Assembly: GCA_018655015.1 (NCBI GenBank)
Contig: JABIKK010000011.1
Span: 111,736-175,735 of the forward strand
DNA: 64,000 nucleotides
Origin: Candidatus Woesearchaeota archaeon
Lineage (GTDB): Archaea > Nanobdellota > Nanobdellia > SCGC-AAA011-G17 > UBA489
Reading direction: 5' to 3'
Shown: positions 12,688 through 60,301 of the stretch, one piece after another
How positions within the stretch are numbered: the stretch's first letter is position 1
How the letters are laid out: each line of letters begins with the position of its first letter
The notes under the pieces: model-generated
Told to the model about the DNA's origin: nothing
Seen by the model: the letters and a program-made list of their open reading frames with translations, nothing else
The model's database searches: none
Made by a program: the position numbers and the translations under genes

Positions 12688-13038
12688 ATGGAAATTAGAA
12701 AAACAATGAATCCACTGGAGTTGAGTACACTGAAGTTTGCTTGGCCAGGTGGAAGGGAAGAAGAAATTGGGGTTGGTGATAATATTGTACCAGGTATTCT
12801 CAAGCAAGCTAACTCCAAAGGTTACTTTTCTTGGACTGATCCAGAAGATTATGATGAATATGAAGGAACTATTATTTCTATGGGATACTTCAGAGATTTT
12901 AGTGGGAAAGATTGGAATGAATGGGAAGATAAATTTGATGGGGGCGGGGCAGCCATTACATATCAGCAATTTCTAGATCTTGGGAGTCCTTTTTTCTTGG
13001 AAGAGGTTAGAACTTACACTTCACTGGGAAAGGATTAG
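12688..13038 (+). CDS. Hypothetical acidic protein (116 aa)
   Basis: ORF with an AT-rich, TATA-containing divergent intergenic region upstream. No motif recognised. Confidence 0.3.
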   Translation: MEIRKTMNPLELSTLKFAWPGGREEEIGVGDNIVPGILKQANSKGYFSWTDPEDYDEYEGTIISMGYFRDFSGKDWNEWEDKFDGGGAAITYQQFLDLGSPFFLEEVRTYTSLGKD

Positions 13039-13054: not shown

Positions 13055-13858
13055 TTAACACTCTTTATCAACTAATTTCTGTAGGAGAATTTTGTAGAAC
13101 TTTGAAACTGTCAATGCTATTAGAGTTATGACTATTAATTGTATTGATGAGAAATAAACTAACATCTGAGTGTATTCTTGTGTTAATGTAATTGCCAATA
13201 GCCAAAAGATTATTGTAGTTATTATGAATAATGGAATATACAATGGTATGAATTTGTAGAACTTTTTTATTGCTAAGTTATATGTCTGTACTAATGCTCG
13301 TTTTAGTGTTTGGTTGCCTAGTACTAAGTAATACATTGTTAGCAAGTAGAGTCCTATGAACGCAGAAATTATTATTCTAAATATGCTGTCATCAAAGGTG
13401 TTAAAAAAATCAGTTATTTGTTTTGGGAATGCTATTTGTGAAAATAAGATTAAAATGAATATCGATGGTATTGAAAGTCTTACTAAGTAATTCTTTATTG
13501 AACTTATTTTTTGTTCCTTAATTGTTCCCCAGAATAATCCTTGGAATGCTATCCAGATTACTAATAATACTAATGGAACTATTACATACGCGAATAATGT
13601 TGCTTCGTTTGTAACTGCATTAAGTGCTTCAATTACTGTTAGTGAGCTGTCTATTGTTGCTGGATTATTGACATCTACGGTGTTTAGGACCTGTTGTAGT
13701 TGTGGTTGAAACTCTTGAACTTTCCTTAAGTAATCTGCTAGTTTTAGTTTAACGAAGATTAAGAAGAATAATGAAGAGAAGAATAACATTAATTGTGCGA
13801 ATGCTAGTGTGAAGAAGTTTTTCTTGTAAACTTTGAATGTTTGGTTTAATAATTTCAT
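13055..13858 (-). CDS. Polytopic membrane protein (about 7 TM), last gene of the giant-protein operon
   Basis: Hydrophobic helices throughout. Its start lies 3 nt after the stop of the 1966-aa gene. Only one Cys, so it does not look like an archaeosortase. Confidence 0.4.
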   Translation of the reverse strand: MKLLNQTFKVYKKNFFTLAFAQLMLFFSSLFFLIFVKLKLADYLRKVQEFQPQLQQVLNTVDVNNPATIDSSLTVIEALNAVTNEATLFAYVIVPLVLLVIWIAFQGLFWGTIKEQKISSIKNYLVRLSIPSIFILILFSQIAFPKQITDFFNTFDDSIFRIIISAFIGLYLLTMYYLVLGNQTLKRALVQTYNLAIKKFYKFIPLYIPLFIITTIIFWLLAITLTQEYTQMLVYFSSIQLIVITLIALTVSKFYKILLQKLVDKEC

Positions 13859-13860
13859 TG

Positions 13861-16800
13861 TTAAAGGTTGATTGTTAATTTTTCACCTAGTAGTTTACTT
13901 GTGTCGATTTGATCTGTAACTACACTTTCTTTTGCACCCGCATCATCTAAGCCATAAACAAGAATCATTAAACCATAATCTCCGCTAGTCATTCCTTCAT
14001 TTTTCATTTCTGAGGGGGTTATTTCCATGGTAGTGCTTCCCGTATCTGCAGACCTCATAACAATGGCTTGACCATTTTTTTCAATTACTGCTTTTAATTC
14101 TAGGTTGCTAGGGTCAAAGAAAATAAATTTGTAGTCTACTTCTTTATCTCTCAGACGAAGCTCTCTGAAAATCGATTCAATCATTAGATTCTCACTCTGA
14201 GGGTAAGATCTTATTGCAATGACGTTATTTTGAGGATCATATCTTAGATTAAAAGTTATCCTCCCTGGAAAGGAATCATAAATGGAACATTCATTTTCTG
14301 CTCTCAAAAGCTTACAAGTTCCCCTTGCATAAACTATGCATTGAGGGTCTTCACAAAATCCTAAATTTTGATCAACATATTCTGCACATAAAGGATTATC
14401 TGAACAAAATGAAGCCTTGCTTTCTCCCGGATCTTCATTCATGGAAGAATGAGATAATGAAGGTGGTTGTGAAGGGTTGGTCTGTTGATTATTATTTGTG
14501 TCGCTACTAATTTGCTTATTTTCAGTAGATACTGCTAAAGTTCTGTATAAATCTGCAAGTCCAAGTCTGAGCTCTATCTGAACTTTGGGGTCCGCTAATC
14601 CATTGTTATCGATTACATCTATGTAAATGTTAATTGCTTTTTCATATTCATCAGTTGAGATTGCAGATTTAATTCTCTCTTTTGCATCTTTGATATCTTC
14701 TGTTGTTAAGTAAACGGATTTTAATCCAAGTTTTTTTACGTAATCATTAATTCTATCTACGGCCCCTTGCGTTGCATTAGGTAATGTTTTTGTAAAGTTG
14801 TTCCAATCTATATCTTTGTTTACTGAATATTCTGTAACTATGTTTTTTGCTGAAGGTAGGTGTAACCAACAGAATCCTAAATTTCTTCCTTCATTGGGCT
14901 TTGGCCCTTCCCAGCATTCTCCAACTTCTTTCCAATCTGCGTCATCTCCAGGAACGAATGTTGAACATACTCTTGTTATTCCTGTGTCCAATAGCCCTGA
15001 TGAAAATCCACCTGCAACAACAGCTCCAGTTTTTGTAGCAGCATTAGTGTAAGGTCCACTTAAACTTGAGCCTGAAGGATTACATTGTTCTGCAGTTTGT
15101 ATTTCAGCTTGACCTGCTTCTTTTTCCGCCATTTTTTGTGCAACCCAATTTGCTGCAAAGCCAGAAGTTGTCTTACCAAATCCACATTCTTCCCTTACAC
15201 CATATGTTGGACTGCTGTAAGCCATACATACTTGGTTGTAGCCTTCGGGGGCATTGAAGTCAATGTTTTCTGAACTAAATGCATCAGGAGTTAGTCTCTT
15301 ATTTCTTACTAACCAGGCTATTGGAAGTCCACTTTGACCATCGATTGACTGGTGCTTTAGATAAACTGAAAATGAGAGTGGTTCATTTGCTCCAGCATAC
15401 ATTCTGTAGTATACCTTGTATGTTGATTGTGGAGGGAATGGAATATCTGAGTAAGGTACTACATCCATTATTGCTGTGAATTGTGGAGGACTTTCTGGTT
15501 GCATTAATCTATCTGTGAATGATCCGACCCCTGGAACCTTGCCATATACTGCGGACTTACAAACTTCTGCGCCTATCTCGGGTAGAGCTCCACCAGAGAA
15601 TTGTGCGAAAGTGTTTTTTGCATAATCTTGAGTGAAGAATTTTAATCCGTTGATGGATTGGTCCATGCTTGCATCAAAGTCGGTATATTCTGATCCTTCA
15701 TTATCATGAATTTTATTTAATATTGTTCCAACTAATCCACTTTTAATATTGAATATTGCGATTGCTTCTTTCCAAAGGACATCACATATGTAATAACTTC
15801 TTAACATGTCACATATTCCAACAGACTCGTCATCAACTAAAGATCTTTTTAGACAATCAGAATATTCCATTAACACAGTTCTAATGTTTTGTAGACCTGC
15901 ATAAATTCCAGTGATACAAACGGGCATTACAACTTGTCCGCCATCAAATCCTATATCTGTTCCCGGTATACCCCAGTTATGTAATCCTAAAATTGTGCTT
16001 CCAATAATTCCTGTTTCTGCCACATTATCAACTTTCCAGGTTCCACCTAAATCAAATCTACTTGGTGGACAAAGAACTGGATCACATGCGTTGAATAATA
16101 ATTTACATTCTGTTGGACTGTAGAATTCTACACAGGAAGGCCCTTTTGTAATTGGATCGTTTCTAATTGCATAATCAATTCCATTACAAATTACTTGATC
16201 TCTGTTTGAAGCTTTTGCTCTGTTAATTGTGCCAACACATGATTCAACTTTCTTAAGATCTGCAGTATTTTTCCCTTCTTTGTTCCACTTTTCTGTTGTA
16301 GCGCTTAGACTATTTCCTCCAAATTCTGTGTCATCTGCTCTTATTTCCTCATTAGGGTTTATACGACCAAATATTCTTGGTTCAAGCATTCTCCCTCCAG
16401 AAGTGTAGTCTACCTCGGCGTAGTGTGTTGCATCAATAGTCATCCTATGGATTTTGCCTGCATTTGGCCCGTCAGTATAGTAAGTTACCTTGGGGATATG
16501 TTTTACTCTTTGTTCAACTGAAGTTGAGGAGAGGGTGTATGTTTCTCCATCTGGAGAAAGTAATGATGTTGCATCTGGTTCGTTGCTTCCAAAGAGAATT
16601 AGTCCTCCCTTAGGAGAAGGATAGGCATAATTTGTTCTAGAACGTGCTAATAAAACTGCTACATTTGCCTCTTCTTCTATTTTTTGTGGAGCCCAATCTG
16701 GATGTTTTATCTTTAATTCTCCGGTTTTTCTTTCAATCCACATTTCTTCTACGTTTTGTGAAAGTTGTGAATCCCCAGGATCTAATTTGAATTTTGCCAA

Positions 16801-19761
16801 GTTACCCACAAATACTTTGTTATCATTTGGTAAGTAGGCTGACGATTGAGAATTATCTAATGTTGAAAGGTAATCACTATGGTCGGAATAACTTGGATCA
16901 GAGCGAAGTTCCCTAAACATCTCGGCATTTCTCTCTTCTACTGCAATTTGTAAGTTGGCTCTTTCTTCATCGGATAGTACATCACCTGAAGGATTCAATC
17001 TTTTTAATTCTTCATCATAGTTTTTATCTTCTTTTATAGCTACATAGGCATTAAGGTAATCCTTTGTGTTTTGGGAGCTTGAGTTTTGAATCATTCTCTT
17101 TTGAAGATACGCAAGATTTTCTAGTTGTACACTATTTTCTGGAGTTTTTTTAATACCACTCAGATCATCTGCATAACTATCTTTGGAAGCATATTCGTAT
17201 GCATCTTCAGTTTCTTTTAGAATTTGATTATATGCATCTTCGTTTTCAAAAACACATTCGTCCATGGCTAAACCTTGCCTTTTACATAACTCTCCTTGTT
17301 GTTCCCAGAATATCTCTGATGCTCTATCTTTTGCTCTACCTGAACCTGAACCAACCGTTGCCTTAAGGAAATTCCATGCAGCAATTGCAGTAAATACTCC
17401 GAAACAGAATTTCTTCCATGCCTCATGGATCTTTCCAACTTTTTCCAAAGTATCGTCTAACTTTAATAGCAATTTTTCTGTTTTGTCAATTTCTGATTCT
17501 ATTGAAGCTGAGAATAATGGTAGGTCGAATGCTCTTTTTTCAATTGGAATATGTAAATTAAATCTTGCCGCACTAAATGCTTTTTCGATATTTGGACTTA
17601 CAATTATATGTGCTTCATTGTGAAGTTCGACACCTTCAAGGATTACTAGTTGGGTTTTAGATGTGTCTTTGTTTTTTATTGGAATACTTAAACCATTTCT
17701 ATCGTCTCTTAAAATTGTCATATCACTCTTAAAAGTTTTATCTGTGGGAGAGAGAACTAAAGAGTTAGAATTTATCTTTTTAACAATCCAAGGTGAATAT
17801 CCTTCCATGAAAGGCATTGCTTCTCCCTCATGTAATGTATGTTTTTCTTTGGCTATGGATCCATCTGGCTTGTAAACCTTAACTGTTGCAGTTGATTTGC
17901 TCCCTTCTAGTTGATAATCTGTAACGCTTGAACCATCTAAGACTACAGTCACTAGTTCATCATTCTTTTCCTTCAGATCTATTTCGGCCTTAAGACTTTG
18001 TCCAGAAGGGTTTTTTATATATGCAGTTAGTAGGTCTACCCTACTTTGGATTTTAACAGGGGAAATTATTGATTCTGCTTCTGTTTTTTTGTCACCATTA
18101 TATGCTATAATCATTTCAAGTAATCTATTGTATTCTATTATTGCTTGATTATGATTTTTTAATTTCGCATGATAAATAACTGCTTTGTTATATTGTGCGT
18201 AGAACTCGGGGATTAAATTTTTGTCTCCACTTGCTGCACCCTCGTAACTAACTTCCGTGTCTCCATCTACTAAGGAAACTACGCTTGCATATTCGTCGGC
18301 AGATAGTTGGTAAAGTTCATTTGCTTTTTTATCATCGGGGATTGTTCCAAGAGAAAACTCTGCGGTTTGGTAAGTTTTCCAGTAAGTCCCTAGGAATTCA
18401 TTTAATCTTGCCCTTGCTAAATTGTGAATGATTTCAAAACTGCCATCTTTAGTTAACATCGCGGCAGTATCAGATTCTATTTGTGTAAGTAATGATTGCA
18501 TTGCTTTTGCATGTTCTTTTGAAACTGATGTAGGGTTCTCTTGAAATATATCTACACAGGGATTTAATGTTTTTAGTGCTGCATTGTAGTTGTCGGGTGT
18601 TGTTGCTGTACGAAGTTTTTCTTCTACATCTTTAACAGCAAAAGATAATTCACTTCCTTTTGCAATTGGTCCGCATCTCAGGACGAAGGTTCCAGTAATT
18701 CCCATGTTTTCATTTTTGGCAATAGGCAAGTCATCAAATTCAATCTCTCCCGCTGCAGACCTTACAGATATCGGAAATCCTGCAGTTTGTAGTCTGCCAC
18801 TAGGTGTCCTGAAATCTGCATGTAAATTATTGTCCCTTAGTTCTATTCTCTCTAAAGTTATTCCTGATCCAGGGTAGATTGATTCTCCTTCAGCTACAGT
18901 ATGTGTTTCTGGCACTCCGTCTCTAAGAACCATAATGTCTAAAGTTCTCCCACCAGATTTAATATCTTTAAGATAAACATTAAACTTGTCAAAAACCTGA
19001 CCTGGAGAATAAAACCTACTTCTCCTTAACGTTCTTGATTTTTTTCCTTTTTCTATTCTTAGATCATCTTCTATGAGATTACCATTGTTATCATAAATAT
19101 CAAATATTGCATAGTTAGAAGATATTTCTTCAGCTTCAATGTAGATGTTTAAATATTTTTGATTTTCCCTGTTGCTTCTTTCTATAGATTTTTCTCTAAT
19201 AACCATTTTTGTTGGGCTTTTTCCAATTCCTGAAGAAACATCAAACAAAACTCTTGAATCAACTTCGATTATGATTTCATCTGGAACATTAGATTCTTTT
19301 GGAATTCTTGCAATAGGGATTTGTAAGTAACCCATGTTATCATAGGTTAATGGTTGTGTTCTGTCTCTGAAGTATCTCGGTCTTCCAACTCTTACAGGCA
19401 GATCTTCTGGCACAGTTACAACATTGTATGAAAGAATATCTATGTCATGAATTTTTGGGACTGTGATAGCCGGATTACTTGGCGTTCCTGAAAGTATTGC
19501 ATATACTAATGCTCCCTGATCTTCTAAAATGCCTGTTCGGAGTATTGATGGTTGATACTCTTTTACGTTGATTATTATGTCTTCCCCTATTATGTCTGAA
19601 ACTGTTGGAGATTCTGTAAGACGTCTATCTAATTCATCCCCTATACTTCTTGCTTGGTCCCCTATATTTGTTTTAACTATTTGACCTGATGCTATTGGTA
19701 ACGTTAGCACTAGGAAAATCATAAACATTGAAATTAGTTTTTTAAGTTTCATTTTATTCAA
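13861..19761 (-). CDS. Giant secreted/surface protein (1966 aa) with N-terminal signal peptide
   Basis: Uninterrupted 5.9 kb ORF. N-terminus MNKMKLKKLISMFMIFLVLTLPIASGQ. A Cys-rich module lies around CVGTINRAKASNRDQVICNGIDY...CKLLFNACDPVLCPP, and CSDNPLCAEY...CEDPQC near the C-terminus. No TM outside the signal peptide. Confidence 0.6.
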   Translation of the reverse strand: MNKMKLKKLISMFMIFLVLTLPIASGQIVKTNIGDQARSIGDELDRRLTESPTVSDIIGEDIIINVKEYQPSILRTGILEDQGALVYAILSGTPSNPAITVPKIHDIDILSYNVVTVPEDLPVRVGRPRYFRDRTQPLTYDNMGYLQIPIARIPKESNVPDEIIIEVDSRVLFDVSSGIGKSPTKMVIREKSIERSNRENQKYLNIYIEAEEISSNYAIFDIYDNNGNLIEDDLRIEKGKKSRTLRRSRFYSPGQVFDKFNVYLKDIKSGGRTLDIMVLRDGVPETHTVAEGESIYPGSGITLERIELRDNNLHADFRTPSGRLQTAGFPISVRSAAGEIEFDDLPIAKNENMGITGTFVLRCGPIAKGSELSFAVKDVEEKLRTATTPDNYNAALKTLNPCVDIFQENPTSVSKEHAKAMQSLLTQIESDTAAMLTKDGSFEIIHNLARARLNEFLGTYWKTYQTAEFSLGTIPDDKKANELYQLSADEYASVVSLVDGDTEVSYEGAASGDKNLIPEFYAQYNKAVIYHAKLKNHNQAIIEYNRLLEMIIAYNGDKKTEAESIISPVKIQSRVDLLTAYIKNPSGQSLKAEIDLKEKNDELVTVVLDGSSVTDYQLEGSKSTATVKVYKPDGSIAKEKHTLHEGEAMPFMEGYSPWIVKKINSNSLVLSPTDKTFKSDMTILRDDRNGLSIPIKNKDTSKTQLVILEGVELHNEAHIIVSPNIEKAFSAARFNLHIPIEKRAFDLPLFSASIESEIDKTEKLLLKLDDTLEKVGKIHEAWKKFCFGVFTAIAAWNFLKATVGSGSGRAKDRASEIFWEQQGELCKRQGLAMDECVFENEDAYNQILKETEDAYEYASKDSYADDLSGIKKTPENSVQLENLAYLQKRMIQNSSSQNTKDYLNAYVAIKEDKNYDEELKRLNPSGDVLSDEERANLQIAVEERNAEMFRELRSDPSYSDHSDYLSTLDNSQSSAYLPNDNKVFVGNLAKFKLDPGDSQLSQNVEEMWIERKTGELKIKHPDWAPQKIEEEANVAVLLARSRTNYAYPSPKGGLILFGSNEPDATSLLSPDGETYTLSSTSVEQRVKHIPKVTYYTDGPNAGKIHRMTIDATHYAEVDYTSGGRMLEPRIFGRINPNEEIRADDTEFGGNSLSATTEKWNKEGKNTADLKKVESCVGTINRAKASNRDQVICNGIDYAIRNDPITKGPSCVEFYSPTECKLLFNACDPVLCPPSRFDLGGTWKVDNVAETGIIGSTILGLHNWGIPGTDIGFDGGQVVMPVCITGIYAGLQNIRTVLMEYSDCLKRSLVDDESVGICDMLRSYYICDVLWKEAIAIFNIKSGLVGTILNKIHDNEGSEYTDFDASMDQSINGLKFFTQDYAKNTFAQFSGGALPEIGAEVCKSAVYGKVPGVGSFTDRLMQPESPPQFTAIMDVVPYSDIPFPPQSTYKVYYRMYAGANEPLSFSVYLKHQSIDGQSGLPIAWLVRNKRLTPDAFSSENIDFNAPEGYNQVCMAYSSPTYGVREECGFGKTTSGFAANWVAQKMAEKEAGQAEIQTAEQCNPSGSSLSGPYTNAATKTGAVVAGGFSSGLLDTGITRVCSTFVPGDDADWKEVGECWEGPKPNEGRNLGFCWLHLPSAKNIVTEYSVNKDIDWNNFTKTLPNATQGAVDRINDYVKKLGLKSVYLTTEDIKDAKERIKSAISTDEYEKAINIYIDVIDNNGLADPKVQIELRLGLADLYRTLAVSTENKQISSDTNNNQQTNPSQPPSLSHSSMNEDPGESKASFCSDNPLCAEYVDQNLGFCEDPQCIVYARGTCKLLRAENECSIYDSFPGRITFNLRYDPQNNVIAIRSYPQSENLMIESIFRELRLRDKEVDYKFIFFDPSNLELKAVIEKNGQAIVMRSADTGSTTMEITPSEMKNEGMTSGDYGLMILVYGLDDAGAKESVVTDQIDTSKLLGEKLTINL

Positions 19762-21736
19762 ATGTTGGATTCCTCATTTTTTTACTAAATTGTCCTTGAC
19801 TCGTATAAACATTATTTAATTCTTCAAATGATGTCGGTGTTTTCCCCCTATAAGAGTATAGTGCAATTTTATTTGAAGTAGCCAATACTCTTCGATCTAC
19901 ATTCCATGATGTTGATCCCCCTCCAGCTACAACTGAGTCTAATTCAATTGGATCAATTTTTTGTTGCGTACATTTAGTTTCTGTTAATCCAACAATGCCA
20001 CCAATGCCCCTCTTTGGAACTTCTGAACAAATTTCTATTTCTCTTTCTGGGAAATTAAAACCGCCAGATGTTTCAACCATCAATGTTGATGATACTTTGT
20101 AATTACCTGCGACCAATTTTAACTTTTCATTTGAAGGATAGTAGTAAGTAGTAAAATATTCTTTGTCTTCATTCTCAAATTGGAATAGTATGCTTTCTGT
20201 GTCATAAGGAGATCTTAGTATCCCTTCATCATCAATTATTATTTCAACAGGTAATGCGTAATAAGGCTCCAATGGGACGTTAACCATTCCTTCTTGGTTA
20301 GTATCTACTTCAAAACTAGATGTGTGATATCCTTGTTTAGATGCAATCATTTTTCCACCAATACATTGTGGGAATTGGGTTGTTAGTGAGTATGTGCTTC
20401 CTTCTTGCCTGGTTCTACCGGATTCACATTCGGTGAAAACGCACTGTAATGAAATGTCTGCACCATCTAATGGGACAGATGACCCATCTGCAGCTATACC
20501 TAATGCTGTAACTTTTAGAGTTGTGTCCTTTCTTTCACATATTCCAGGATCGTCTTCAAATTGTGGAACTAAGAATTGATTTTTCTTAGCTTGATTATTA
20601 TCAATCACTGCAACGAAAGGAAATTGGAAAGTGTAATCTTCCTCAGTTAAGGTTGCAAGCACTGGGAATTTTAGGTCATACACAAAATGATAATCATTTA
20701 AACAAAATAGAGGGAGTAAAAATCTTGCTGCTTCGTTTTCTGATGTGAAAGGTTTACCCCTTAGTAGTTCTGAATCTGTTCCAATGACGTCCATCATAAA
20801 TGGCCAGGAAGGGGATGAGATTAATGAAACCGTTAGGTCTTTTTCTTTTTTCTTAAATGTGTCATGTATTAATTGTTCATCTTTTCTATCCGTTATCCTA
20901 AAGTCTGTTCCTTCTATCTTTAATGTAGGAATATTTAATGCTAAGATGGATTTTAGGTCTTGAGCTACTTGTGTTTTCAACCAGGTTCTTGGAGTACATT
21001 CAAAGTCTACGCCTGAGAAAGGAATTTCATCGTAAACAACCATTGTTTCTAATGTGAAGTTTTCAACGAAACCAGTTCTAGTTTCATACTCGAAGAGTTC
21101 TAAGGCACGAGAGTATAATCTGCCTAACGGTACATTTGAAATTGTTCTGAACTTTGTGAAGGTTTGTGCAGTTTCCTTATATTTAACTTCTAGAAGCATT
21201 GAAACATCCGCTATTACTGCCTCATTCCCAATTTCAATTTCAATCTCTGGAGAATTGTGTTCTATAATGTAGCCTTCACTTTTGAATATAGTGTAATCAT
21301 TTAAACAAGAATCTAATTCTGACTCCATGAATTGTTCTAACTCAGTTTCCATTTCTTGTTTTGAAGGTACTTGTGTTTTTTCTAGATTATTTTGTGTTAA
21401 GAATGACCAGTAGGGAACAGTTAATCCATCATTACCAAAGATGCTTAATCTATTTGTTAATGGGTTATATGCTGTTGGAGGAAAGTCTCCTTCAGGCGTT
21501 ATTATATGTCCACCCTTTAATCCAAGTTCTGCAGTTCCATCATCTAAGGATTGTTGTAAGCAATCATTTGTAAAAGAATGTACTTTTTCTATTTGACTTA
21601 TTGTTGGTTGCTCTGATAAAGTTTCTTTTTTTAGTGAATCGAAAATTTGTTCTCTAAAGTATACTCCGGTTATTACTGCTGCAAGTATTACTATTCCTGC
21701 AATTATGAAAGCTGTAGCTTGGGCCTTTTTATTCAT
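19754..21736 (-). CDS. Membrane-anchored extracellular protein (660 aa) with an N-terminal signal-anchor
   Basis: N-terminus MNKKAQATAFIIAGIVILAAVITGVYF, then a soluble Cys-containing region. Its stop overlaps the start of the giant gene by 8 nt. Confidence 0.5.
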   Translation of the reverse strand: MNKKAQATAFIIAGIVILAAVITGVYFREQIFDSLKKETLSEQPTISQIEKVHSFTNDCLQQSLDDGTAELGLKGGHIITPEGDFPPTAYNPLTNRLSIFGNDGLTVPYWSFLTQNNLEKTQVPSKQEMETELEQFMESELDSCLNDYTIFKSEGYIIEHNSPEIEIEIGNEAVIADVSMLLEVKYKETAQTFTKFRTISNVPLGRLYSRALELFEYETRTGFVENFTLETMVVYDEIPFSGVDFECTPRTWLKTQVAQDLKSILALNIPTLKIEGTDFRITDRKDEQLIHDTFKKKEKDLTVSLISSPSWPFMMDVIGTDSELLRGKPFTSENEAARFLLPLFCLNDYHFVYDLKFPVLATLTEEDYTFQFPFVAVIDNNQAKKNQFLVPQFEDDPGICERKDTTLKVTALGIAADGSSVPLDGADISLQCVFTECESGRTRQEGSTYSLTTQFPQCIGGKMIASKQGYHTSSFEVDTNQEGMVNVPLEPYYALPVEIIIDDEGILRSPYDTESILFQFENEDKEYFTTYYYPSNEKLKLVAGNYKVSSTLMVETSGGFNFPEREIEICSEVPKRGIGGIVGLTETKCTQQKIDPIELDSVVAGGGSTSWNVDRRVLATSNKIALYSYRGKTPTSFEELNNVYTSQGQFSKKMRNPTFE

Positions 21737-25762: not shown

Positions 25763-25878
25763 TGAGCCCAGCCGGATTTGAACCGGCGACCTCCAGCTTT
25801 CTTAGAGCTTGTTTCCTTTTCTAAAACGAAAAGGCGTCATATAAGACTGGCGCTCTAACCAGACTAAGCTACGGGCTC
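25763..25878 (-). tRNA. Intron-containing tRNA. Predicted mature anticodon is UAU (tRNA-Ile), with a ~41-nt intron at the canonical 37/38 position.
   Basis: 5' exon is GAGCCCGTAGCTTAGTCTGGTTAGAGCGCCAGTCTTATA. The intron is TGACGCC...CTAAGAA. 3' exon is AGCTGGAGGTCGCCGGTTCAAATCCGGCTGGGCTCA. Anticodon stem CCAGT/GCTGG closes only after removing the 41 nt. Confidence 0.7.
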
Positions 25879-48755: not shown

Positions 48756-49172
48756 ATGGCTAAAGACAAGGCAAAGATAACTAGTAAGAATATTCTAGAT
48801 ACAAGAAGAGATGTTTTACCTGCGAAGAAAAGATTAGATGGATTAGTTTTACAATTAGTTAATCAGAGATCACTTGCCAGGGAAATAGCCCACGCTGAAG
48901 TTCTTATTGCATTGGCTGAAAAAAGATTTGAAGATGCTTTGCCCATGATAGTGTTGTATAATATGAGTATCCCTCCTGGGGATCTTAAAAAAGTAGCAGA
49001 TGCATATTGTAGGGATGGATTCAATAATGATAGTGAATACTTAACATTTGTAAGAAACGCATATAGGTCATTAGGTATGGAAAATGAGGCTAGAGAACTT
49101 CATGGATCAATTGTTGACGCAGTGGAACAAGAGAATTATGAGAAGGAAGCAAGTGTTGAACCTGCTCAATAA
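48756..49172 (+). CDS. Hypothetical protein (138 aa)
   Basis: ORF with no motif. Confidence 0.3.
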   Translation: MAKDKAKITSKNILDTRRDVLPAKKRLDGLVLQLVNQRSLAREIAHAEVLIALAEKRFEDALPMIVLYNMSIPPGDLKKVADAYCRDGFNNDSEYLTFVRNAYRSLGMENEARELHGSIVDAVEQENYEKEASVEPAQ

Positions 49173-50332
49173 TTACTAGGATCTACTTCTTCATAAGATC
49201 CGCCAATTCTAATTTCATCATAGTAAATTGTGTTTTCTGAAAGAACATTTGGACCTCTGTAAAGTCCTAATTTCAGATTCTTTGGTGTTGATGTATACAT
49301 GTTCTTTGCAGTATGTTTTCCATCAGTAAACGAACCTCCATTTAACCATGCTTGAATGTAGCCATCATTTTCCATTGACCATTTTACTTCAAATATTATG
49401 TCGTTCCATTCCCCTAATTGTATTGCTCTTTCTCCAATAAGTGTTGATTGTGAGTTGACATTTGGTCTTGTAAGGACTCCTAGTCCTGTAGTGCCATCTG
49501 CTAATTCTTCATATCTTATTGAGACTGAAGGGCTTCCTTTCTTTCCGCCGTGATTATTTTCCCATTCTTCCCATGATTGATTTGCCTCGGGTCGGTGGAA
49601 CCATTGTCCAACTATATTGAATCCATCATGTTCTACACTATGATTATAGTAAAAATCTTCTGGGAAATAAACACTCCACCCATAGAAGACTGGACGGCCA
49701 TCCATAGGATATTCATCTGCGTAAGGTAGTTTCAAACTTAGTTCTACTCTGCTTTTACCATATATTAAATCATGTTGAACTGCTACGTCTCCATGCCTTA
49801 CGTTCATCTTGAGTGCGTAGTTTCCATTTCTCGTAATGTCTGAAACTATGATTCCTGAATCGGCCCTTGCAAATTGTGCATTCCAATGTTCCGAAAGAGA
49901 TCCACTTTCGAAATCTGTGGTTATTGAGAAAATGTCTTCTCCGAAGTTTCCTGATTCGTTGTTTCCTGATTCGTTATTATTACTTTCATTGTTTCCTGAT
50001 TCGTTGTTTCCGGATTCGTTGTTGGATCCTTCGTCTTCGCCTTCTTCATCCTCCTCTTCCTCGTTTTGGTCATCCCCATTATCTGGAGGTGGGTCATCTA
50101 CGTCTCCTGAATCTGAAGCTCCAGAATTGTCAGGGGTTTTTTCTAGAACGGGATTGTTTTCATCTGTGAGTCCATCTGGACTTGTTGATTGTGTAACAAA
50201 TGTGCTTTTGATCGTTTTAATTGTACTTTTTGCTAAAGGATTTTTCATTAAGAATGGAATGTACATTATTAATACAAATACTAAAATTACACTAGATACC
50301 TTTAGAAAGTTCTTAAAATCTCCATCACCCAT
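49166..50332 (-). CDS. Membrane-anchored extracellular protein: acidic SGNNE-repeat linker plus C-terminal ConA-like/polysaccharide-lyase-like beta-sandwich domain
   Basis: N-terminal TM. Linker (ESGNN)n. C-terminal domain ...HWNAQFARADSGIIV...GQWFHRPE...LGLYRG, which reads as beta-rich and lectin/glucanase-fold-like. Confidence 0.4.
   Translation of the reverse strand: MGDGDFKNFLKVSSVILVFVLIMYIPFLMKNPLAKSTIKTIKSTFVTQSTSPDGLTDENNPVLEKTPDNSGASDSGDVDDPPPDNGDDQNEEEEDEEGEDEGSNNESGNNESGNNESNNNESGNNESGNFGEDIFSITTDFESGSLSEHWNAQFARADSGIIVSDITRNGNYALKMNVRHGDVAVQHDLIYGKSRVELSLKLPYADEYPMDGRPVFYGWSVYFPEDFYYNHSVEHDGFNIVGQWFHRPEANQSWEEWENNHGGKKGSPSVSIRYEELADGTTGLGVLTRPNVNSQSTLIGERAIQLGEWNDIIFEVKWSMENDGYIQAWLNGGSFTDGKHTAKNMYTSTPKNLKLGLYRGPNVLSENTIYYDEIRIGGSYEEVDPSNY
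49946..50035. repeat. 15-nt tandem repeat (gtttcctgattcgtt) x about 6, encoding the NESGN repeats
   Basis: Perfect copies at 49946, 49961, 49991 and 50006 (the last with 1 mismatch), with degenerate copies between. Confidence 0.6.
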
Positions 50333-50380
50333 GGTATATTGTTTATAAGGATCATTTAAAAATTGTTCGTTAGAGGTTGA

Positions 50381-51412
50381 TCATTCCGAACTATTGGTAT
50401 CAACTGTAGTCGTGTTAACTGTTTTATTGATTAAACTGTTAACTCCGAATTTCCTTAATGCTCCCGGTGCCCTGAACTGTCCATTGTCTCCACCAAAACT
50501 TCCAAACATATTTAGCAGAGTTCCATTTGTAGAATAAACTTTAATTCTATTGTTTAATGTATCTGCAATGTAAATTACACCATTAATTTGCCACATCTTA
50601 CTGTTAAACATAAACTGCTCGTCTCCTCTGCCGTATTCTCCGAATGAGTTCTTTTCAGTTCCATTGGTAAAATACATCTTAATTCTTCCATTGATTGAAT
50701 CTGAAATGTAGATTGTTTGATTATACAACTCTATCCCCATTGGGAACCTTAGGCCAGATTCATTTAAGGAATAACTTCCCCATTCAAATTTGAAAGTTTC
50801 ATTATGATAAAATACTTTTATTTTGTTGTTATCGGTATCTAATACGTAAATGAAATTGTCGTCTAATACTACATCTGAGATATATCTAAACTGTCCTTGA
50901 CCCATTCCCCTTTTACCGAATGAAGATTTATTTGTTCCATTCAAGTAGAATGATGTAATTTTAGATTTGTAAGTGTTAGCTACGTAGATTGTTCCATTGT
51001 ATTCTTCAAATCCAAGTGGCCAAAGAAGGAACGTTTTTCCAAATGAAAACAAAAATGTTAAATTTTTATCAAAAACTTGAATTCGGTTATTTCCTTTGTC
51101 CAATACATATATTTTTTCGTCAATTTCTATTACATCAGAAGGCATTTTGAAAGAATAGTTGCCACTACCAAAATTACCGAAAGAAGTGATGTTGTTTCCC
51201 TGTAAATCAAATACTTGAACTCTGCTGTTGTAAGAATCAGGAATATATATTCTATTTTGGATAAGTTCTGGTTTAGATTCATTGACTAAGGTTAAAGGTT
51301 CTACAGATAGGGTAGGTGTCTCTTCTATTGTTGTTTCTTGAGAGGGCAGTATTAGAATAATAATTAACGCAAGAAGGATTGGAACTAATTTTGAAAGAGA
51401 TATTTTATTCAT
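50381..51412 (-). CDS. Secreted NHL-repeat beta-propeller protein
   Basis: Signal peptide, then at least 5 NHL-like repeats (YIPDSYNSRVQVFD, YVLDKGNNRIQVFD, YVLDTDNNKIKVF, YISDSINGRIKMY, YIADTLNNRIKVY). Confidence 0.65.
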   Translation of the reverse strand: MNKISLSKLVPILLALIIILILPSQETTIEETPTLSVEPLTLVNESKPELIQNRIYIPDSYNSRVQVFDLQGNNITSFGNFGSGNYSFKMPSDVIEIDEKIYVLDKGNNRIQVFDKNLTFLFSFGKTFLLWPLGFEEYNGTIYVANTYKSKITSFYLNGTNKSSFGKRGMGQGQFRYISDVVLDDNFIYVLDTDNNKIKVFYHNETFKFEWGSYSLNESGLRFPMGIELYNQTIYISDSINGRIKMYFTNGTEKNSFGEYGRGDEQFMFNSKMWQINGVIYIADTLNNRIKVYSTNGTLLNMFGSFGGDNGQFRAPGALRKFGVNSLINKTVNTTTVDTNSSE

Positions 51413-56214: not shown

Positions 56215-56868
56215 GTGGTGGTTAAGTATACTAAATTGGAGCATCCTGGCGGAATTTATATTTACAGGGTTCATAATAAGAAGTTAGACAAGTTCTGTAG
56301 TGGTGAATTGGGTGGTTTGAAGAGTTTTTTGACTGATATGTTTGAATCTTGTCCAGATGATTATTTTGGTAGAGGGCCTAGGGGAAGTGCTTTGAAGTTT
56401 AGTTCTAATCACGAGATGGTTGAATTAAGTGGCCATAGAGTTTGTAGTTTAGCAGAGAATGGATTGAAGGTTAATGCTGATAGGTTCAAATGCAACCATA
56501 GTAAAGTTCAATTGTTTATGTTGGAAAATGATTATGAGACTGTTGCAATTGAAGTTCCTATTTGGTTAAATTCTGATGAGATACCTAGATATGAAGAAAT
56601 ATTTGGAAGTACTGAACCCTTGACTGGACATATTGATTTGTTAACTATTGAAGATGGTAAGATTTGGGTCTGGGATTATAAGCCTAATGCGCATAAAGAG
56701 AAATATGCCGATACGCAAGTTTATTTTTATTCTTTGATGTTAAGTAAGAGAACTGGAATTCCTTTGGAAAAGTTTAGATGTGGTTACTTTGATTGGGATA
56801 GGGCCTATATGTTTAAGCCTGGAGAAATTGAAAGTAAAGAACTTAATTCTAGTTTGAAGAATTACTAA
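56215..56868 (+). CDS. RecB-family PD-(D/E)XK nuclease (Cas4/NucS-C-like core without a C-terminal Cys cluster)
   Basis: Motif II GHIDLL, motif III WDYK (DxK) and the family-specific QVYFY (QhxxY) motif, all in order. Confidence 0.55.
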   Translation: MVVKYTKLEHPGGIYIYRVHNKKLDKFCSGELGGLKSFLTDMFESCPDDYFGRGPRGSALKFSSNHEMVELSGHRVCSLAENGLKVNADRFKCNHSKVQLFMLENDYETVAIEVPIWLNSDEIPRYEEIFGSTEPLTGHIDLLTIEDGKIWVWDYKPNAHKEKYADTQVYFYSLMLSKRTGIPLEKFRCGYFDWDRAYMFKPGEIESKELNSSLKNY

Positions 56869-57716
56869 TCTTTTTTGAGACCTTGTAAAGTTTTTCTAGT
56901 TAGAATATCTTGGGAATAGCCTTCAGTTCCGCCACCATTGTAGCGACTAAGAGTATCTTCCCATGAACGGCAATTGTGAGGTTGTGAAATTTTATGTGCA
57001 GATTGAACCCTAACTTTGTCTCCTAATCCTAATTTGTCAGGTGAGATTTCTGGGTTTAACTCTTTTATGAATTCTAAGTATGAATTGTTGTCTTGTGCTA
57101 TTGCACCTAATGAGTCTCCACTTTCTACAGTATGGTAAAATGGTTGGCCATCTGGAACTGTTTCTGTATGGTAATCTTCAAAGTGCTTGCCGAATAAGAA
57201 AATTAAACCGCCCTTAATACTTGCTTCGGATGTCATGGAATTATTACTTGAGTAATCTAATTTCCCATCTTTCCAATGGGTGTGATCGAATTCATTAAAC
57301 TGTTCAGACATATCTTCAAGCCCTAACTTCCAAAAGAATTTTGGATCTTGTAATTCATTTAAACCATAATCTCCATTATTGGCTATTTGAGCAGGGTCAT
57401 GTGTGAAAGCATTTCTATGATTCGGTGAACCTGTTTCTTGAATTATCCATGATTTTGCAACAATTGGGTCTAATCCCTCGCATCCACTTAAACTTTTGAA
57501 GTGTGCGTTAAGTTCTCCTACATAAGTCAATATTGCTTGATCATGTTGATGGTATGCTTCTGAATCATAATTTTCGAAGTTAGGGATTGTTTTGGGAACC
57601 TCTACTTTTTGTTCTAATGTTTGTTCGGGATTAATTGGAAGTGGTTCTTCTGGTTTGCTACAAGCAGTGCTAGCGAGTAATGCTGTTCCTACCAATAATT
57701 TGTTTAATAGTCCCAT
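56865..57716 (-). CDS. Secreted lipoprotein-like protein with lysozyme-like (SLT-like) region and C-terminal LysM domain
   Basis: N-terminal signal with Cys (LLASTAC). IIQETGSPNHRNAFTHDPAQIANNGDYGLNEL resembles the SLT catalytic Glu-Ser plus GxxGLMQ region. HTVESGDSLGAIAQDNNSYLEFIKELNPEISPDKLGLGDKVRV is a LysM. Confidence 0.5.
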   Translation of the reverse strand: MGLLNKLLVGTALLASTACSKPEEPLPINPEQTLEQKVEVPKTIPNFENYDSEAYHQHDQAILTYVGELNAHFKSLSGCEGLDPIVAKSWIIQETGSPNHRNAFTHDPAQIANNGDYGLNELQDPKFFWKLGLEDMSEQFNEFDHTHWKDGKLDYSSNNSMTSEASIKGGLIFLFGKHFEDYHTETVPDGQPFYHTVESGDSLGAIAQDNNSYLEFIKELNPEISPDKLGLGDKVRVQSAHKISQPHNCRSWEDTLSRYNGGGTEGYSQDILTRKTLQGLKKD

Positions 57717-57800
57717 TTTTCGTCCTCATTTGAGTACACCAACCTATAGTTTACAGTATATAAGTCTATTGATTTGTAGCCTTAGAGCTTTAAGGGAAGG

Positions 57801-57808
57801 TTTATAAG
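57801..57808 (+). promoter_or_regulatory. Candidate TATA box (TTTATAAG) 22-29 nt upstream of the polB ATG (leaderless-type spacing)
   Basis: AT-rich octamer. A second TATATAA lies at 57757. Confidence 0.3.
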
Positions 57809-57829
57809 ATTTCTGAGCTTTGGTAGTGG

Positions 57830-60301
57830 ATGGCAAAATTAGACTTTTATCCCTTAACTGTGGACTATATTGACGAGCCAAATGGGGCACACAGAGGGAT
57901 GGTTAGACTATTTGGTAGATGTCCTGATGGGAAAAGGATTTGTGTATTGGATAGTAATTTTTCTGCTTATTTTTGGGTTATTTTGGATAAGAAAGAACAT
58001 GCTGAGAAGATTAAAAATAAATTACTTGCTTTGAAGATTGAAGAAGTAAGGAGAAATGCATATGTCACTAATGTTGAGATTAAAAATAAAAAACATTTGT
58101 CTAAAGATGTCTGTGCTTTGAAAGTTGAAGTTAATAATCCTAAAGATGTTTCAATTATTCGTGAAGAAATAAAGAAATGGAAAGAGATTGATGATTTGTT
58201 AGAGTTGGATATTCCGTTTGTTAGAAGATATTTGATGGATTCTAAAATTGAACCTTTGAGTTTGTGTACTGTTGAAGGTGAAGAAGTTGAAAGTAGTTAT
58301 ACTGTTGATTCGGTGATTAATGCAAAGAAAGTTGTTTCTAAAGAAAATGGTTATTTGGACAAACCTAAAGTTCTTGGTTTTGATATTGAAGTTTATAGTA
58401 AACATAGATTCCCCAATGATCAAATAGATCCAATATTGATGGTTGCTCTTTATGGTAATGATGGCTATAAGAAAACAATTGTATGGAAGAAATTCAATAA
58501 TCCTACTGATGATGTTGAATTTGTTAAAGATGAGAAGGAACTGATTGTAAGATTTAATGATTTGGTTAATGAGTATGGTCCGGATTTCATAGTTGGCTAT
58601 TTTTCAGATGGTTTTGACTTCCCTTACCTTCAAGCTAGAGCAGATAAGCTAAAAGTTAAATTGAAATTGGGTTTGGATGGAAGTGCCTTGAAGCAAAACA
58701 GGCGAAATAACACTTCTACTACCAAAATAAAGGGTGTTGCGCATGTTGATGTGTTTAAGTTCATTAGACGTATTATGAGTGGTGAAATTAATTTACCTGC
58801 CTATGATTTGAATACTGTTGCAAGTAATTTTTTAGGTTCTGGTAAAGTTGGCGTTGATATTAACAAATTGTGGAAGGCATGGGACGAAGGAAGCGATGAA
58901 CTTGGTGAATATTGTAAATATAATTTAGTTGATTCAAAATTAGCATGTGAACTATTTGAAAAGATCTATCCTAATTTAAATGAGTTTGTGAAGTTATGTG
59001 GTTTGCCTGCAGATGATATTTCTAGAATGGGCTTCAGTCAATTAGTTGAAAGTTTTGTTATGAAGAATTTAGATGAGTTTAATGAAATTGCTCCGAATAG
59101 ACCTTATAGGAATGTTGTTGGCGCGAGAGAAGGAGTTAAAGTTGAAGGGGCTTTTGTGTTTAAGCCAGATCCTGGAATGTATAAGGATATAGTTGTTTTT
59201 GATTTTAAATCTCTGTATCCAACCATAATTAGTGCACACAATATTTGTTCTAGTACAATAACGGATAGTAAGAAAGAAGTTAATGTCTCTCCTAAGATCG
59301 ATGTTGATGGAAAAGAAGTGCAATACAATTTTAATTTTAAGTATGACGGGATCTTTCCTAAATTAATTAGAGAAATATTGGTTAGAAGGAATAGAGTTAA
59401 GGAATTATTGAAGAAAAATAAGAAAGATGCTACCTTGAATGCTAGGCAATATAGTCTAAAGACTCTTGCTAACAGTTCCTATGGCTATTTGGGCTTCTCT
59501 GGTGCAAGGTGGTATTGTAAGGAATGTGCTGCGTCTACAACTGCTTATGCAAGAGATTATATTCGAAAGGCAATGGATGAAGCTGAAAAAGAAGGTTTGA
59601 AAGTCATTTACGGAGATACTGATTCGGTTTTTATTGCATTGGGAGATAAAACAAAAAAAGATGCTGAGAATTTTTTGAAAAAAGTTAATGAAACCTTGCC
59701 TAGTTTGATGGAGTTAGAAATGGATGGCTATTACCCTCGTGGTATTTTTGTAATGAAGAAGGGTGAAGATGAAGGTGCTAAGAAAAAATATGCACTACTT
59801 GATGAAAAAGGCGAAATTAAAATTGCAGGATTTGAAACTGTTCGTGGAGATTGGAGTGCAATTGCAAAAGAAACACAGAAAGAAGTTCTTAAGATAATTT
59901 TAGTTGAAGATGATGTGGAGAAGGCAGTTAAATATGTTAAAAAAGTTTTAGATGATGTTAGGGATGGAAAGATCGACATTAGTAGGATGGTTTTGAAGAA
60001 AAGGTTGACTAAAGATATTGAAGACTATAGTGCAATTGGTCCACATGTTAATGTTGCTAAGAAAATGGTTAAACGAGGAGATGCTGTTGGAGCTGGAAGT
60101 GACATTAGATATGTTGTTCAAGAAGGAAAGGGAAACATAGGAGATAGATCTGTTCCAAGTGATGAAGCTGAAAGTTATGATCCTGAATATTATACTGACA
60201 ATCAAATAATTCCTGCGGTAGAAAGGATATTCTTGGCGGTAGGATATGATAAAGAAGATTTAACAAAGCTTCATAAACAGAAAAGTTTAGGTGATTTCTA
60301 A
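57830..60301 (+). CDS. polB: Family B DNA polymerase
   Basis: Exo I FDIEV, Exo II/III, Pol motif A DFKSLYPTII, motif C YGDTDS and KKKY. 823 aa, no intein. Confidence 0.9.
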   Translation: MAKLDFYPLTVDYIDEPNGAHRGMVRLFGRCPDGKRICVLDSNFSAYFWVILDKKEHAEKIKNKLLALKIEEVRRNAYVTNVEIKNKKHLSKDVCALKVEVNNPKDVSIIREEIKKWKEIDDLLELDIPFVRRYLMDSKIEPLSLCTVEGEEVESSYTVDSVINAKKVVSKENGYLDKPKVLGFDIEVYSKHRFPNDQIDPILMVALYGNDGYKKTIVWKKFNNPTDDVEFVKDEKELIVRFNDLVNEYGPDFIVGYFSDGFDFPYLQARADKLKVKLKLGLDGSALKQNRRNNTSTTKIKGVAHVDVFKFIRRIMSGEINLPAYDLNTVASNFLGSGKVGVDINKLWKAWDEGSDELGEYCKYNLVDSKLACELFEKIYPNLNEFVKLCGLPADDISRMGFSQLVESFVMKNLDEFNEIAPNRPYRNVVGAREGVKVEGAFVFKPDPGMYKDIVVFDFKSLYPTIISAHNICSSTITDSKKEVNVSPKIDVDGKEVQYNFNFKYDGIFPKLIREILVRRNRVKELLKKNKKDATLNARQYSLKTLANSSYGYLGFSGARWYCKECAASTTAYARDYIRKAMDEAEKEGLKVIYGDTDSVFIALGDKTKKDAENFLKKVNETLPSLMELEMDGYYPRGIFVMKKGEDEGAKKKYALLDEKGEIKIAGFETVRGDWSAIAKETQKEVLKIILVEDDVEKAVKYVKKVLDDVRDGKIDISRMVLKKRLTKDIEDYSAIGPHVNVAKKMVKRGDAVGAGSDIRYVVQEGKGNIGDRSVPSDEAESYDPEYYTDNQIIPAVERIFLAVGYDKEDLTKLHKQKSLGDF

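Follow-up and report, generated by a model that had tools for sequence, protein, structure and literature searches.

A protein of 283 aa encoded in the window (the whole stretch of DNA analysed, 64,000 nucleotides) is probably a surface-tethered, extracytoplasmic glycan-cleaving enzyme with a GH23 fold, and bacterial peptidoglycan is proposed as its most likely substrate because the archaeon itself makes no such polymer; the probability of this reading is put at about 0.6. The archaeon would be a marine member of the DPANN (Nanoarchaeota/Woese-Pacearchaeota group), and for the enzyme we infer catalysis, peptidoglycan as the substrate and an ecological role as follows. A Sec/lipoprotein-type signal would export the protein, Cys19 and a Pro/Glu linker would probably retain it at the surface, a single LysM on a β-ribbon stalk in a loop of the catalytic domain would dock it onto a GlcNAc-containing polymer and Glu94, as the general acid, would cut the β-1,4 glycosidic bond in a cleft lined by DP(A/M)Q, SIxGG and YNGGG. 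The archaeon could use it to break through or digest the wall of a bacterium, be it partner or prey, or to salvage fragments of walls.

The open reading frame, taken from the ORF list and re-translated from its coordinates, starts with ATG, consists of 283 codons plus a stop and fills exactly the interval given in Table 1, and its closest orthologues show 82% and 66% identity. When analysing the intergenic region on the PolB side, a TATA-like sequence (TTATATA, 57757–57763) with a putative promoter role and a Shine-Dalgarno-like sequence (GAGGA, 57723–57727), whose role is likewise putative, were identified on the strand of the gene. The window also contains genes for TBP, TFB, MCM, RFC, PolB, FEN1, topo VI and the thermosome, bearing out the archaeal context noted in the initial annotation, and the nearest named relatives of the neighbouring PolB are from Nanoarchaeota and Woesearchaeota. 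Of the ~50 ORFs of the window that were scanned, none was recognised as a gene for murein synthesis.

Table 1. Positions in the window of the gene for the 283-aa protein, its predicted parts and the adjoining intergenic region.
Feature	Position	Strand	Basis
Complete CDS, predicted exported GH23-like glycan-cleaving enzyme with nested LysM	56865..57716	-	ORF list, orthologues
Predicted signal peptide, residues 1-19 (MGLLNKLLVGTALLASTAC), lipobox-like Ala18-Cys19	57660..57716	-	hydropathy and PROSITE-style lipobox regex
Linker rich in Pro and Glu (residues 20-45), predicted to act as a flexible tether	57582..57659	-	composition; model; family alignment
GH23/SLT-like catalytic domain, N-terminal part, residues 46-183	57168..57581	-	
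Codon of Glu94, predicted general-acid catalytic residue	57435..57437	-	invariance, model, alignments
Insertion, residues 184-247, long two-stranded β-ribbon bearing LysM	56976..57167	-	
Pfam LysM match, residues 195-237	57006-57134	-	
Catalytic domain, C-terminal part, residues 248-283	56868..56975	-	family conservation, hhalign, HMMER
Intergenic region, 113 bp, between the gene and the divergent PolB gene	57717..57829	.	read from sequence

The N-terminus consists of an n-region with a lysine (K6), hydrophobic residues 7–17 and a lipobox-like A18-C19 that fits a PROSITE-style pattern, and Cys19, which may be lipidated, is kept in both close orthologues. Among the 50 members of the family a hydrophobic N-terminal segment is present in 45, the lipobox pattern in nine and a twin-arginine motif in five. 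This signal pattern and the export signals across the family agree with the earlier description of the protein as secreted, either exported or anchored at the surface. In the first AF2 model the linker that follows shows no structure and its confidence is very low, and in the family alignment it is gap-rich and variable.

Searches for the catalytic domain in Pfam, NCBIfam and the PDB (phmmer with the 283-aa protein, hmmsearch with the full family profile) returned the LysM only, and Pfam SLT (PF01464) was not matched by the 283-aa protein even at E ≤ 1, while in the family Pfam Lysozyme_like was reached by 3/50 members (best E 1.2e-5) and SLT, weakly, by 2/50 (best E 0.021). Since the standard sequence models miss the domain, structure prediction and profile-profile comparison were required. 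A usable AF2 model was obtained only with an alignment of 29 sequences (pLDDT 90.8, pTM 0.86; pLDDT 35 with three sequences), and in this model the catalytic part has a lysozyme-like α-helical fold where Glu94 closes the C-terminal end of helix 84–95 and is followed by T95. The lysozyme-like (SLT-like) domain suggested by the initial annotation is in this way recovered in the predicted structure, together with its conserved catalytic Glu. When the family profile with the LysM excised was compared by hhalign with E. coli Slt70/MltE/MltC/MltD, a match was obtained (E 3.7e-5, probability 71%) in which E94 falls on the catalytic Glu, SIxGGxxxL on NIxxGxxYL and RYNGGG on AYNAG. The best match of the same profile in the PDB was cod g-type lysozyme, which is not significant (E 0.15) and is consistent with the fold result; in this HMMER match E94 pairs with E73 and RYNGGG with AYNTG. 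An hhalign comparison with one goose lysozyme sequence gave no significant match (probability 0.3%) and is left out of the argument. The domain is confidently predicted to fold as a GH23 lysozyme/lytic-transglycosylase domain, an assignment of fold only, at which level hydrolytic (lysozyme) and lytic-transglycosylase chemistry, the latter being the non-hydrolytic cut of MurNAc-β1,4-GlcNAc to give 1,6-anhydroMurNAc, are not separated by sequence and fold.

The region around the Glu reads W-I-I-Q-E94-T-G-S ... D107-P-A-Q110-I-A-N. In the 50-member alignment E94, P108 and Y259 are invariant and D107, Q110, N113, D116, S166, G170, W252, N260, G261, G263 and Y267 are conserved in at least 90% of the members, a conservation that is far above chance. 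The N-terminal part of the domain holds motif I (QE94TGS), motif II and the helix S166-I-K-G-G-L-I-F-L, and the C-terminal part holds W252, R-Y259-N-G-G-G (motif III, AYNxG-like) and Y267 (motif IV-like). Motif III and the downstream Tyr are conserved and align to AYNAG, whereas motif II is D-P-(M/A/L/T)-Q-I-A-N in the family as compared to G-L-M-Q in GH23/SLT, is not paired column for column by hhalign, and lies 16 residues from the Glu as compared to 18 in Slt70 and MltE. The Glu-Ser/GLMQ-like stretch pointed out earlier is thus present, with E94 invariant, but in a divergent form (E-T-G-S, DP(A/M)Q), and its placing upstream of the LysM holds for residues 46–183 but not for the last 36 residues (RYNGGG...Y267), which lie after the LysM. 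Goose-type lysozyme (GEWL) has the auxiliary acidic residues D86/D97 besides the catalytic Glu, and in the family the acidic D107 and D116 are conserved, the sequence matches to goose-type lysozyme being insignificant.

The LysM proposed in the initial annotation is a true one (Pfam PF01476, E 2.5e-7), scoring 30.9 bits where the Pfam gathering threshold is 20.9 and having the βααβ fold, so that the profile search suggested there succeeded for LysM but not for SLT and Lysozyme_like, neither of which is matched by the 283-aa protein. LysM modules are specific for GlcNAc-β-1,4 polymers. In the protein the single LysM sits inside the catalytic domain on the β-ribbon, after the SIxGG helix and before the YNGGG motif, which would be an unusual means of fixing a binding module beside a GH23 cleft; LysM-less homologues occur naturally. 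In one homologue an NlpC/P60 domain was suspected by eye in a C-terminal extension (NCSGYV ... H) but was unsupported by Pfam and by PDB sequence search. Local HMMs detected no second family member or classical SLT domain elsewhere in the 64-kb window.

The family is mainly archaeal, with members in Woesearchaeota, Nanoarchaeota and two MAGs labelled Methanosarcinales, and includes one divergent Acidobacteria member on a genuinely bacterial contig. A search of GTDB species genomes was performed using a hand-made degenerate DNA pattern and an hmmsearch filter, and all ten true family matches carried archaeal labels, the pattern being built from a mostly archaeal alignment and therefore weighted against bacterial members that have diverged, P0168 for example. 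A comparison of GC and codon usage, which had been suggested as a check, shows that the gene resembles the window and is native in composition (GC 0.366 as compared to 0.341±0.026, GC3 0.247 as compared to 0.254, codon-usage z-score +0.59), and the order PolB / 283-aa gene / PD-(D/E)XK / FEN1 is kept in relatives where the orthologue is only 35% identical. From native composition, kept synteny and archaeal labels together it follows that any bacterial origin would probably be ancient; the horizontal acquisition from bacteria put forward in the initial annotation is, as a recent event, not supported by these sequence comparisons. The same data bear on the idea that the gene codes for an endolysin and came recently from a bacterium or phage, by horizontal transfer or as the remnant of a prophage, an idea which could appeal to GH23 and LysM being overwhelmingly bacterial or phage domains and to the Acidobacteria member. 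Against it stand, besides composition, codon usage, synteny and the ten archaeal matches, the neighbours, which are FEN1, PD-(D/E)XK and PolB and not phage genes, and the lack of any significant viral structural match beyond the LysM. On the grounds of composition, synteny and neighbours we rejected both a recent transfer and a prophage as the source, and the endolysin explanation is considered extremely improbable.

A catalytically dead adhesin, with a lysozyme-like cleft and a LysM that only bind glycan and anchor the archaeon to its partner, would fit both the departure of motif II from GLMQ and the failure of standard catalytic-domain models to see the domain. However, the catalytic Glu is invariant (50/50) and the following Ser/Thr, Q110, Y259-N-G and Y267 are conserved, and therefore selection appears to act on catalysis and not on binding alone, leaving the adhesin very doubtful. 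An enzyme acting on an archaeal glycan, the archaeon's own or that of a host (pseudomurein, methanochondroitin or the chitobiose cores of N-glycans), in remodelling or host attachment would be a slightly better candidate but is still improbable. Pseudomurein, the alternative target named in the initial annotation, is unlikely since its β-1,3 linkages withstand enzymes of the lysozyme type, and the Methanobacteriales and Methanopyrales, which produce it, are not pelagic organisms of the sea; to our knowledge the substrates of GH23 include no archaeal wall polymer, and the specificity of LysM also speaks against this target. On the other side, all cultured DPANN have archaeal hosts (PMC8204110), two family members are found in the MAGs labelled Methanosarcinales and the vertical conservation beside housekeeping genes is as expected for a core function. 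Somewhat more weight, though it is still unlikely, can be given to a chitinase or chito-oligosaccharide hydrolase of the GH23 type that scavenges GlcNAc from marine chitin, for which Ralstonia Ra-ChiC, likewise joining LysM to a goose-lysozyme-like domain, is a parallel.

Bacterial peptidoglycan as the target would be reasonable and in agreement with the published DPANN literature, where murein-like lytic transglycosylases are known from Woese- and Pacearchaeota (PMC8204110, PMC9723730, PMC10936187) and killing of bacteria has been demonstrated for archaeal peptidoglycan hydrolases (PMC12352652). The genes of such weaponised hydrolases are patchy and plasmid-biased (Strock et al. 2025, PMC12352652) whereas the gene for the 283-aa protein is chromosomal, syntenic and stably, vertically conserved, which may point to a role in housekeeping or symbiosis and not in antagonism, and the place it keeps beside genes of core replication, even in relatives that diverged deeply, likewise speaks for a core function and less for a weapon gained sporadically. 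Genomes offer few clues that some DPANN interact with bacteria, and peptidoglycan-cutting enzymes in organisms lacking peptidoglycan belong to these; the 283-aa protein adds to the existing hints that DPANN attack or feed on them. More tentatively, the family could serve the Woese-, Pace- and Nanoarchaeota as a "can-opener" inherited vertically throughout the lineage, an unrecognised branch of GH23 in which the LysM sets the active site on bacterial peptidoglycan and the walls of bacterial hosts are opened for episymbiotic attachment or feeding. Should this be true, much of the marine DPANN diversity would rely on bacteria rather than archaea and archaeal anti-bacterial wall enzymes would be substantially undercounted by Pfam-based surveys. 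The family would in any case be absent from those published counts of archaeal wall hydrolases that rely on Pfam or CAZy, because standard catalytic-domain models are blind to it. The mature protein, about 260 aa, small, soluble and easily expressed, would allow a direct test of the bacterial-wall hypothesis.

When compared to the Family 1 lytic transglycosylases (SLT PF01464; GH23: E. coli Slt70, MltE and MltC, P. aeruginosa MltF and Slt), the family has diverged beyond detection by Pfam and NCBIfam and differs in having DP(A/M)Q as motif II, a LysM within the domain, a mainly archaeal distribution and a segment from AYNxG to the final Tyr that is about 25–45 residues shorter. In MltD (family 1D; E. 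coli, P. aeruginosa) the catalytic domain covers residues 76–266 and is followed by LysM1 (279–325) and further LysMs (PMC11327851), all C-terminal to it, whereas in the 283-aa protein the one LysM is nested (184–247) with RYNGGG after it, so that a similar arrangement of LysM and cleft is reached by a different topology; the N-terminal helical insertion of MltD (PMC11327851) was not identified in the 283-aa protein. Goose-type lysozymes, GH23 hydrolases that are eukaryotic or bacterial, have no LysM and match the family insignificantly in sequence, and in the GH23 chitinase Ra-ChiC of Ralstonia sp. A-471 (PDB 3w6b) the LysM modules are N-terminal, not nested, and the substrate is chitin. The modular archaeal peptidoglycan hydrolases of Strock et al. 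2025 resemble the 283-aa protein in combining a catalytic and a wall-binding module, in the signal peptide and in their enrichment in Nanoarchaeota; the protein fits their modular definition structurally but not by Pfam, and because only its LysM matches Pfam the family would have been missed by that survey, which required a Pfam catalytic domain (PMC12352652). The large murein-like lytic transglycosylases of Woese- and Pacearchaeota (fam00969, Castelle et al. 2021, PMC8204110; GH23, Vigneron et al. 2022, PMC9723730), of which no protein of the fam00969 kind was detected in the 64-kb window, share with the 283-aa protein the host lineage, the predicted activity and the proposed role against bacterial walls, but they reach ~3,000 aa and are seen by standard SLT/GH23 models, to which this lipoprotein-like protein is invisible. 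Peptidoglycan-degrading enzymes of DPANN have thus already been described, and the present family is a variant of these that would escape surveys based on Pfam.

Re-translation confirmed the open reading frame of the LysM/GH23 gene reported in the initial annotation and the LysM claimed there was recognised by Pfam (residues 195-237, E 2.5e-7, scoring 30.9 bits with the threshold at 20.9). It is the sole Pfam domain detected in the protein, and no catalytic domain was recognised by Pfam at E <= 1, NCBIfam or PDB sequence search. A word-indexed search returned only two relatives (82% and 66% identity); an exhaustive HMM search across 1.84 billion cluster representatives yielded about 50 homologues of full length (250-350 aa), together with many further LysM-only matches. 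In the 50-sequence alignment E94, P108 and Y259 are invariant, and conservation reaches at least 90% at D107, Q110, N113, D116, S166, G170, W252, N260, G261, G263 and Y267, the consensus being ...LDPxLVKAMIxxE-S-G-S...(F/Y)DPMQIANxGD...TPRxxGxWDYS...SIxGGIxWL...[LysM]...GWxxWxxAVxxYNGGGxxxY. The Pfam model Lysozyme_like is reached by 3/50 members (best E 1.2e-5) and SLT, weakly, by 2/50. Database names are 'LysM peptidoglycan-binding domain-containing protein' (NCBI, one member) and 'hypothetical protein' (JGI); the JGI label 'outer membrane murein-binding lipoprotein Lpp' on two members is probably a mis-annotation.

When the aligned SLT domains of E. coli K-12 slt, emtA, mltC and mltD were compared by hhalign with the family profile after excision of the LysM, a match was obtained (E 3.7e-5, probability 71%) in which E94 falls on the catalytic E-S-motif Glu, and the segments SIxGGxxxL and RYNGGG fall on NIxxGxxYL and AYNAG, respectively. 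Against PDB sequences the sole match of this profile, not significant, was cod g-type lysozyme (E 0.15), with E94 paired with E73 and YNGG with AYNTG. The AlphaFold2 model of residues 46-283, built with 29 family sequences (pLDDT 90.8, pTM 0.86; pLDDT 35 with three sequences only), places E94 at the C-terminal end of helix 84-95. In GH23 enzymes the catalytic acid is carried at the C-terminal end of a helix. Model and profiles indicate that the conserved domain is a divergent GH23 / lysozyme-like catalytic domain, and the lysozyme-like fold first proposed from the sequence is thus retained in the structure prediction. D107 and D116 are conserved, and sequence comparison did not establish them as equivalents of the auxiliary Asp residues of goose lysozyme.

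In six family members the stretch of about 63 residues seen in the others shrinks to 1-8, and because of this LysM-lacking form the LysM is read from the alignment as an insertion inside the larger conserved domain, to which the 36 residues after the LysM belong. The LysM is inserted in the loop that joins the SIxGG helix to the W252...YNGGG segment; DSSP of the model gives a long two-stranded ribbon (strands 179-196 and 234-249) with the LysM βααβ at its tip (helices 203-209 and 214-220).

The N-terminus, MGLLNKLLVGTALLASTAC, carries a Lys in its n-region; its hydrophobic core peaks at 1.85 on the Kyte-Doolittle scale, and the lipobox-like Ala18-Cys19 is followed by a Pro/Glu-rich linker at residues 20-45. 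Since an N-terminal hydrophobic segment occurs in 45 of the 50 members, a lipobox pattern in 9/50 and a twin-arginine motif in 5/50, the family is predicted to be extracytoplasmic. Two upstream elements, TTATATA and GAGGA, presumably function for the gene. Its tight pairing with a PD-(D/E)XK nuclease gene is also seen at two loci of relatives, L001 and L046.

The archaeal context assumed at the outset holds, the window being an archaeal chromosome with genes that include TBP, TFB, MCM bearing the archaeal winged helix, both RFC subunits (small and large), PolB and FEN1, alongside thermosome, topoisomerase VI A/B, aIF1A, aIF2β, S8e, tRNA-splicing endonuclease and Kae1. No murein-synthesis genes were found among the ~50 ORFs scanned within the 64-kb window. 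The closest named PolB relatives are from Nanoarchaeota (62%) and Woesearchaeota (about 49%), others at 62% being from TARA ocean samples. Three PolB relatives (P0176, P0179, P0190) of about 1,220 aa have intein/LAGLIDADG domains (PF14890 and PF14528) and are 55-88% identical to the intein-free window PolB in the best local alignment, covering about 73% of the query; intein presence is therefore variable within the lineage.

The composition of the LysM/GH23 gene looks native (GC 0.366, with 0.341±0.026 for the window; GC3 0.247, with 0.254±0.032; z = +0.59 for the log-likelihood of synonymous codons). The order PolB / LysM/GH23 gene / PD-(D/E)XK nuclease / FEN1 recurs on the contigs with the 82% and 66% orthologues and is kept even with the 35%-identical P0009, whose 13,093-bp contig encodes a PolB of 816 aa, agreeing both in protein length and in contig size with the 49%-identity PolB match P0216. 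In a second homologue group the gene lies between archaeal-type ThrRS and Tyr/Trp-tRNA synthetase, beside an MG2-like protein. At five loci of this DPANN group (L008, L009, L044, L045, L047) the synthetase flanking the family gene is class-I, and most also have an archaeal ThrRS close by, along with a protein of 650-730 aa that gives a faint signal for alpha-2-macroglobulin MG2. One homologue, P0157, lacks the LysM yet has this same gene neighbourhood, and the LysM was thus gained or lost within orthologues. L045, otherwise archaeal-looking (archaeal-type ThrRS editing domain), also holds a Sigma70 region 2/4 gene (12762-12891, +); either a DPANN genome here encodes a sigma factor of bacterial type or the contig is chimeric.

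Elsewhere in the window, Rfam gave a sixth tRNA absent from the ARAGORN output, whose 116-nt span suggests an intron-containing archaeal tRNA. Three consecutive ORFs, with no Pfam match at E <= 0.01 and no SLT-like signal with local HMMs, could be giant surface proteins of the kind that DPANN typically have. The polysaccharide lyase and its NHL-repeat neighbour are further candidates for glycan degradation outside the cell, in what is a small archaeal genome, and the LAGLIDADG ORF, with the most atypical codon usage among all window ORFs, could be a mobile element or the remnant of an intron.

Features of the window and their coordinates
Feature	Position	Strand	Details
tRNA-splicing endonuclease gene	4413-4943	-	
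Free-standing LAGLIDADG homing-endonuclease-like ORF	10823-11629	+	PF14528, E 3e-15
Three consecutive ORFs	13055-21736	-	267, 1966, 660 aa
Sixth tRNA	25763-25878	-	116 nt, 56.8 bits
Polysaccharide lyase protein (388 aa) beside NHL-repeat β-propeller protein (343 aa)	49166-51412	-	PF14099, E 5e-30
PD-(D/E)XK nuclease gene	56215-56868	+	
Convergent overlap of nuclease and LysM/GH23 genes	56865-56868		4 bp at stop codons
LysM/GH23 gene	56865-57716	-	ATG start, 283 aa
GAGGA	57723-57727	-	upstream of ATG
TTATATA	57757-57763	-	upstream of ATG
PolB gene	57830-60301	+	823 aa, without intein

When 185,579 species genomes were scanned with a degenerate pattern, biased by its design from an archaeal-rich alignment, and the matches were filtered by the family HMM, 10 true members were obtained, all archaeal-labelled: five Woesearchaeota, two Nanoarchaeota, one unclassified archaeon and two 'Methanosarcinales' MAGs, with eRF1-family (aRF1/Pelota-type) and ThrRS genes as neighbours on one Methanosarcinales contig. 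One homologue, from a Methanosarcinales-labelled MAG (L027, 3530-4972, +), has a C-terminal extension of >140 aa truncated by the contig end; a resemblance to NlpC/P60 cysteine peptidases noted there by eye (NCSGYV...YTHVALYIG) was rejected, Pfam and PDB sequence searches giving no support. Archaeal contexts were found in 8 of 9 metagenomic or MAG contexts inspected. The only clearly bacterial member, the divergent P0168 (E 3.4e-18), lies on a genuine Acidobacteria contig (L043, MAG JACQXX010000070.1, 6001-6912) beside an FtsW-transpeptidase gene and PDH E1; it keeps the nested LysM and YNGGG, has RPIQFGN instead of DPMQIAN as motif II, and could be the bacterial root of the family or an archaea-to-bacteria transfer. 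The family is an old one, passed on within DPANN mainly by vertical descent, and a bacterial origin of both domains is plausible, if so an ancient one. The acquisition from bacteria proposed in the initial annotation is, as a recent event, not supported, in view of native GC, GC3 and codon usage and of synteny kept to 35% identity, and recent HGT or a prophage is accordingly a most improbable explanation.

The analysis shows an export signal pattern, a LysM and a GH23 fold with conserved catalytic motifs, in an archaeal context of vertical inheritance; the protein is very probably an exported GH23-fold enzyme with a nested LysM. It would be exported and probably lipid-anchored via Cys19 on a flexible linker, the LysM would bind a GlcNAc-containing glycan, and Glu94 would protonate, within the cleft, the oxygen of the β-1,4 glycosidic bond. 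As the producer appears to be without such a GlcNAc-containing polymer, the likeliest substrate is bacterial peptidoglycan, and to the whole statement, an exported, tethered GH23-type enzyme with this substrate, we assign a probability of about 0.6. Hydrolysis of chitin or chito-oligosaccharides is an unlikely substitute, an archaeal glycan as target is doubtful to a greater degree, and an adhesin binding without catalysis has a slighter chance still. Pseudomurein is unlikely on chemical grounds, since its β-1,3 linkages are lysozyme-resistant. Of the original interpretation, domains, export and archaeal context stand, and acquisition from bacteria, taken as recent, is not supported; the target is what we infer.

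The concept of archaeal enzymes directed against bacterial walls is already known. Lytic transglycosylases of murein type have repeatedly been reported from Woese-/Pacearchaeota and read as tools against bacterial walls (PMC8204110; PMC9723730; PMC10936187), but these are very large and recognised by standard models, whereas the present family is small and Pfam-invisible. Strock et al. 2025 (PMC12352652) showed killing of bacteria by archaeal peptidoglycan hydrolases and their enrichment in Nanoarchaeota, using a definition that requires a Pfam catalytic domain, which this family lacks; it is thus a blind spot of existing surveys. The small, LysM-nested, syntenically conserved family appears undescribed so far, no description having been found in the literature searchable here, and offers a directly testable handle on DPANN-bacteria interactions, useful though conceptually unsurprising. 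A full-text literature search of incomplete coverage gave no equivalent of a LysM nested in a catalytic domain. MltD, the classic enzyme that combines GH23 with LysM, has its LysM modules after the catalytic domain in sequence, and the first LysM packs against that domain in the crystal structure from P. aeruginosa (PMC11327851); in the modelled family a comparable proximity would instead be reached by true sequence nesting.
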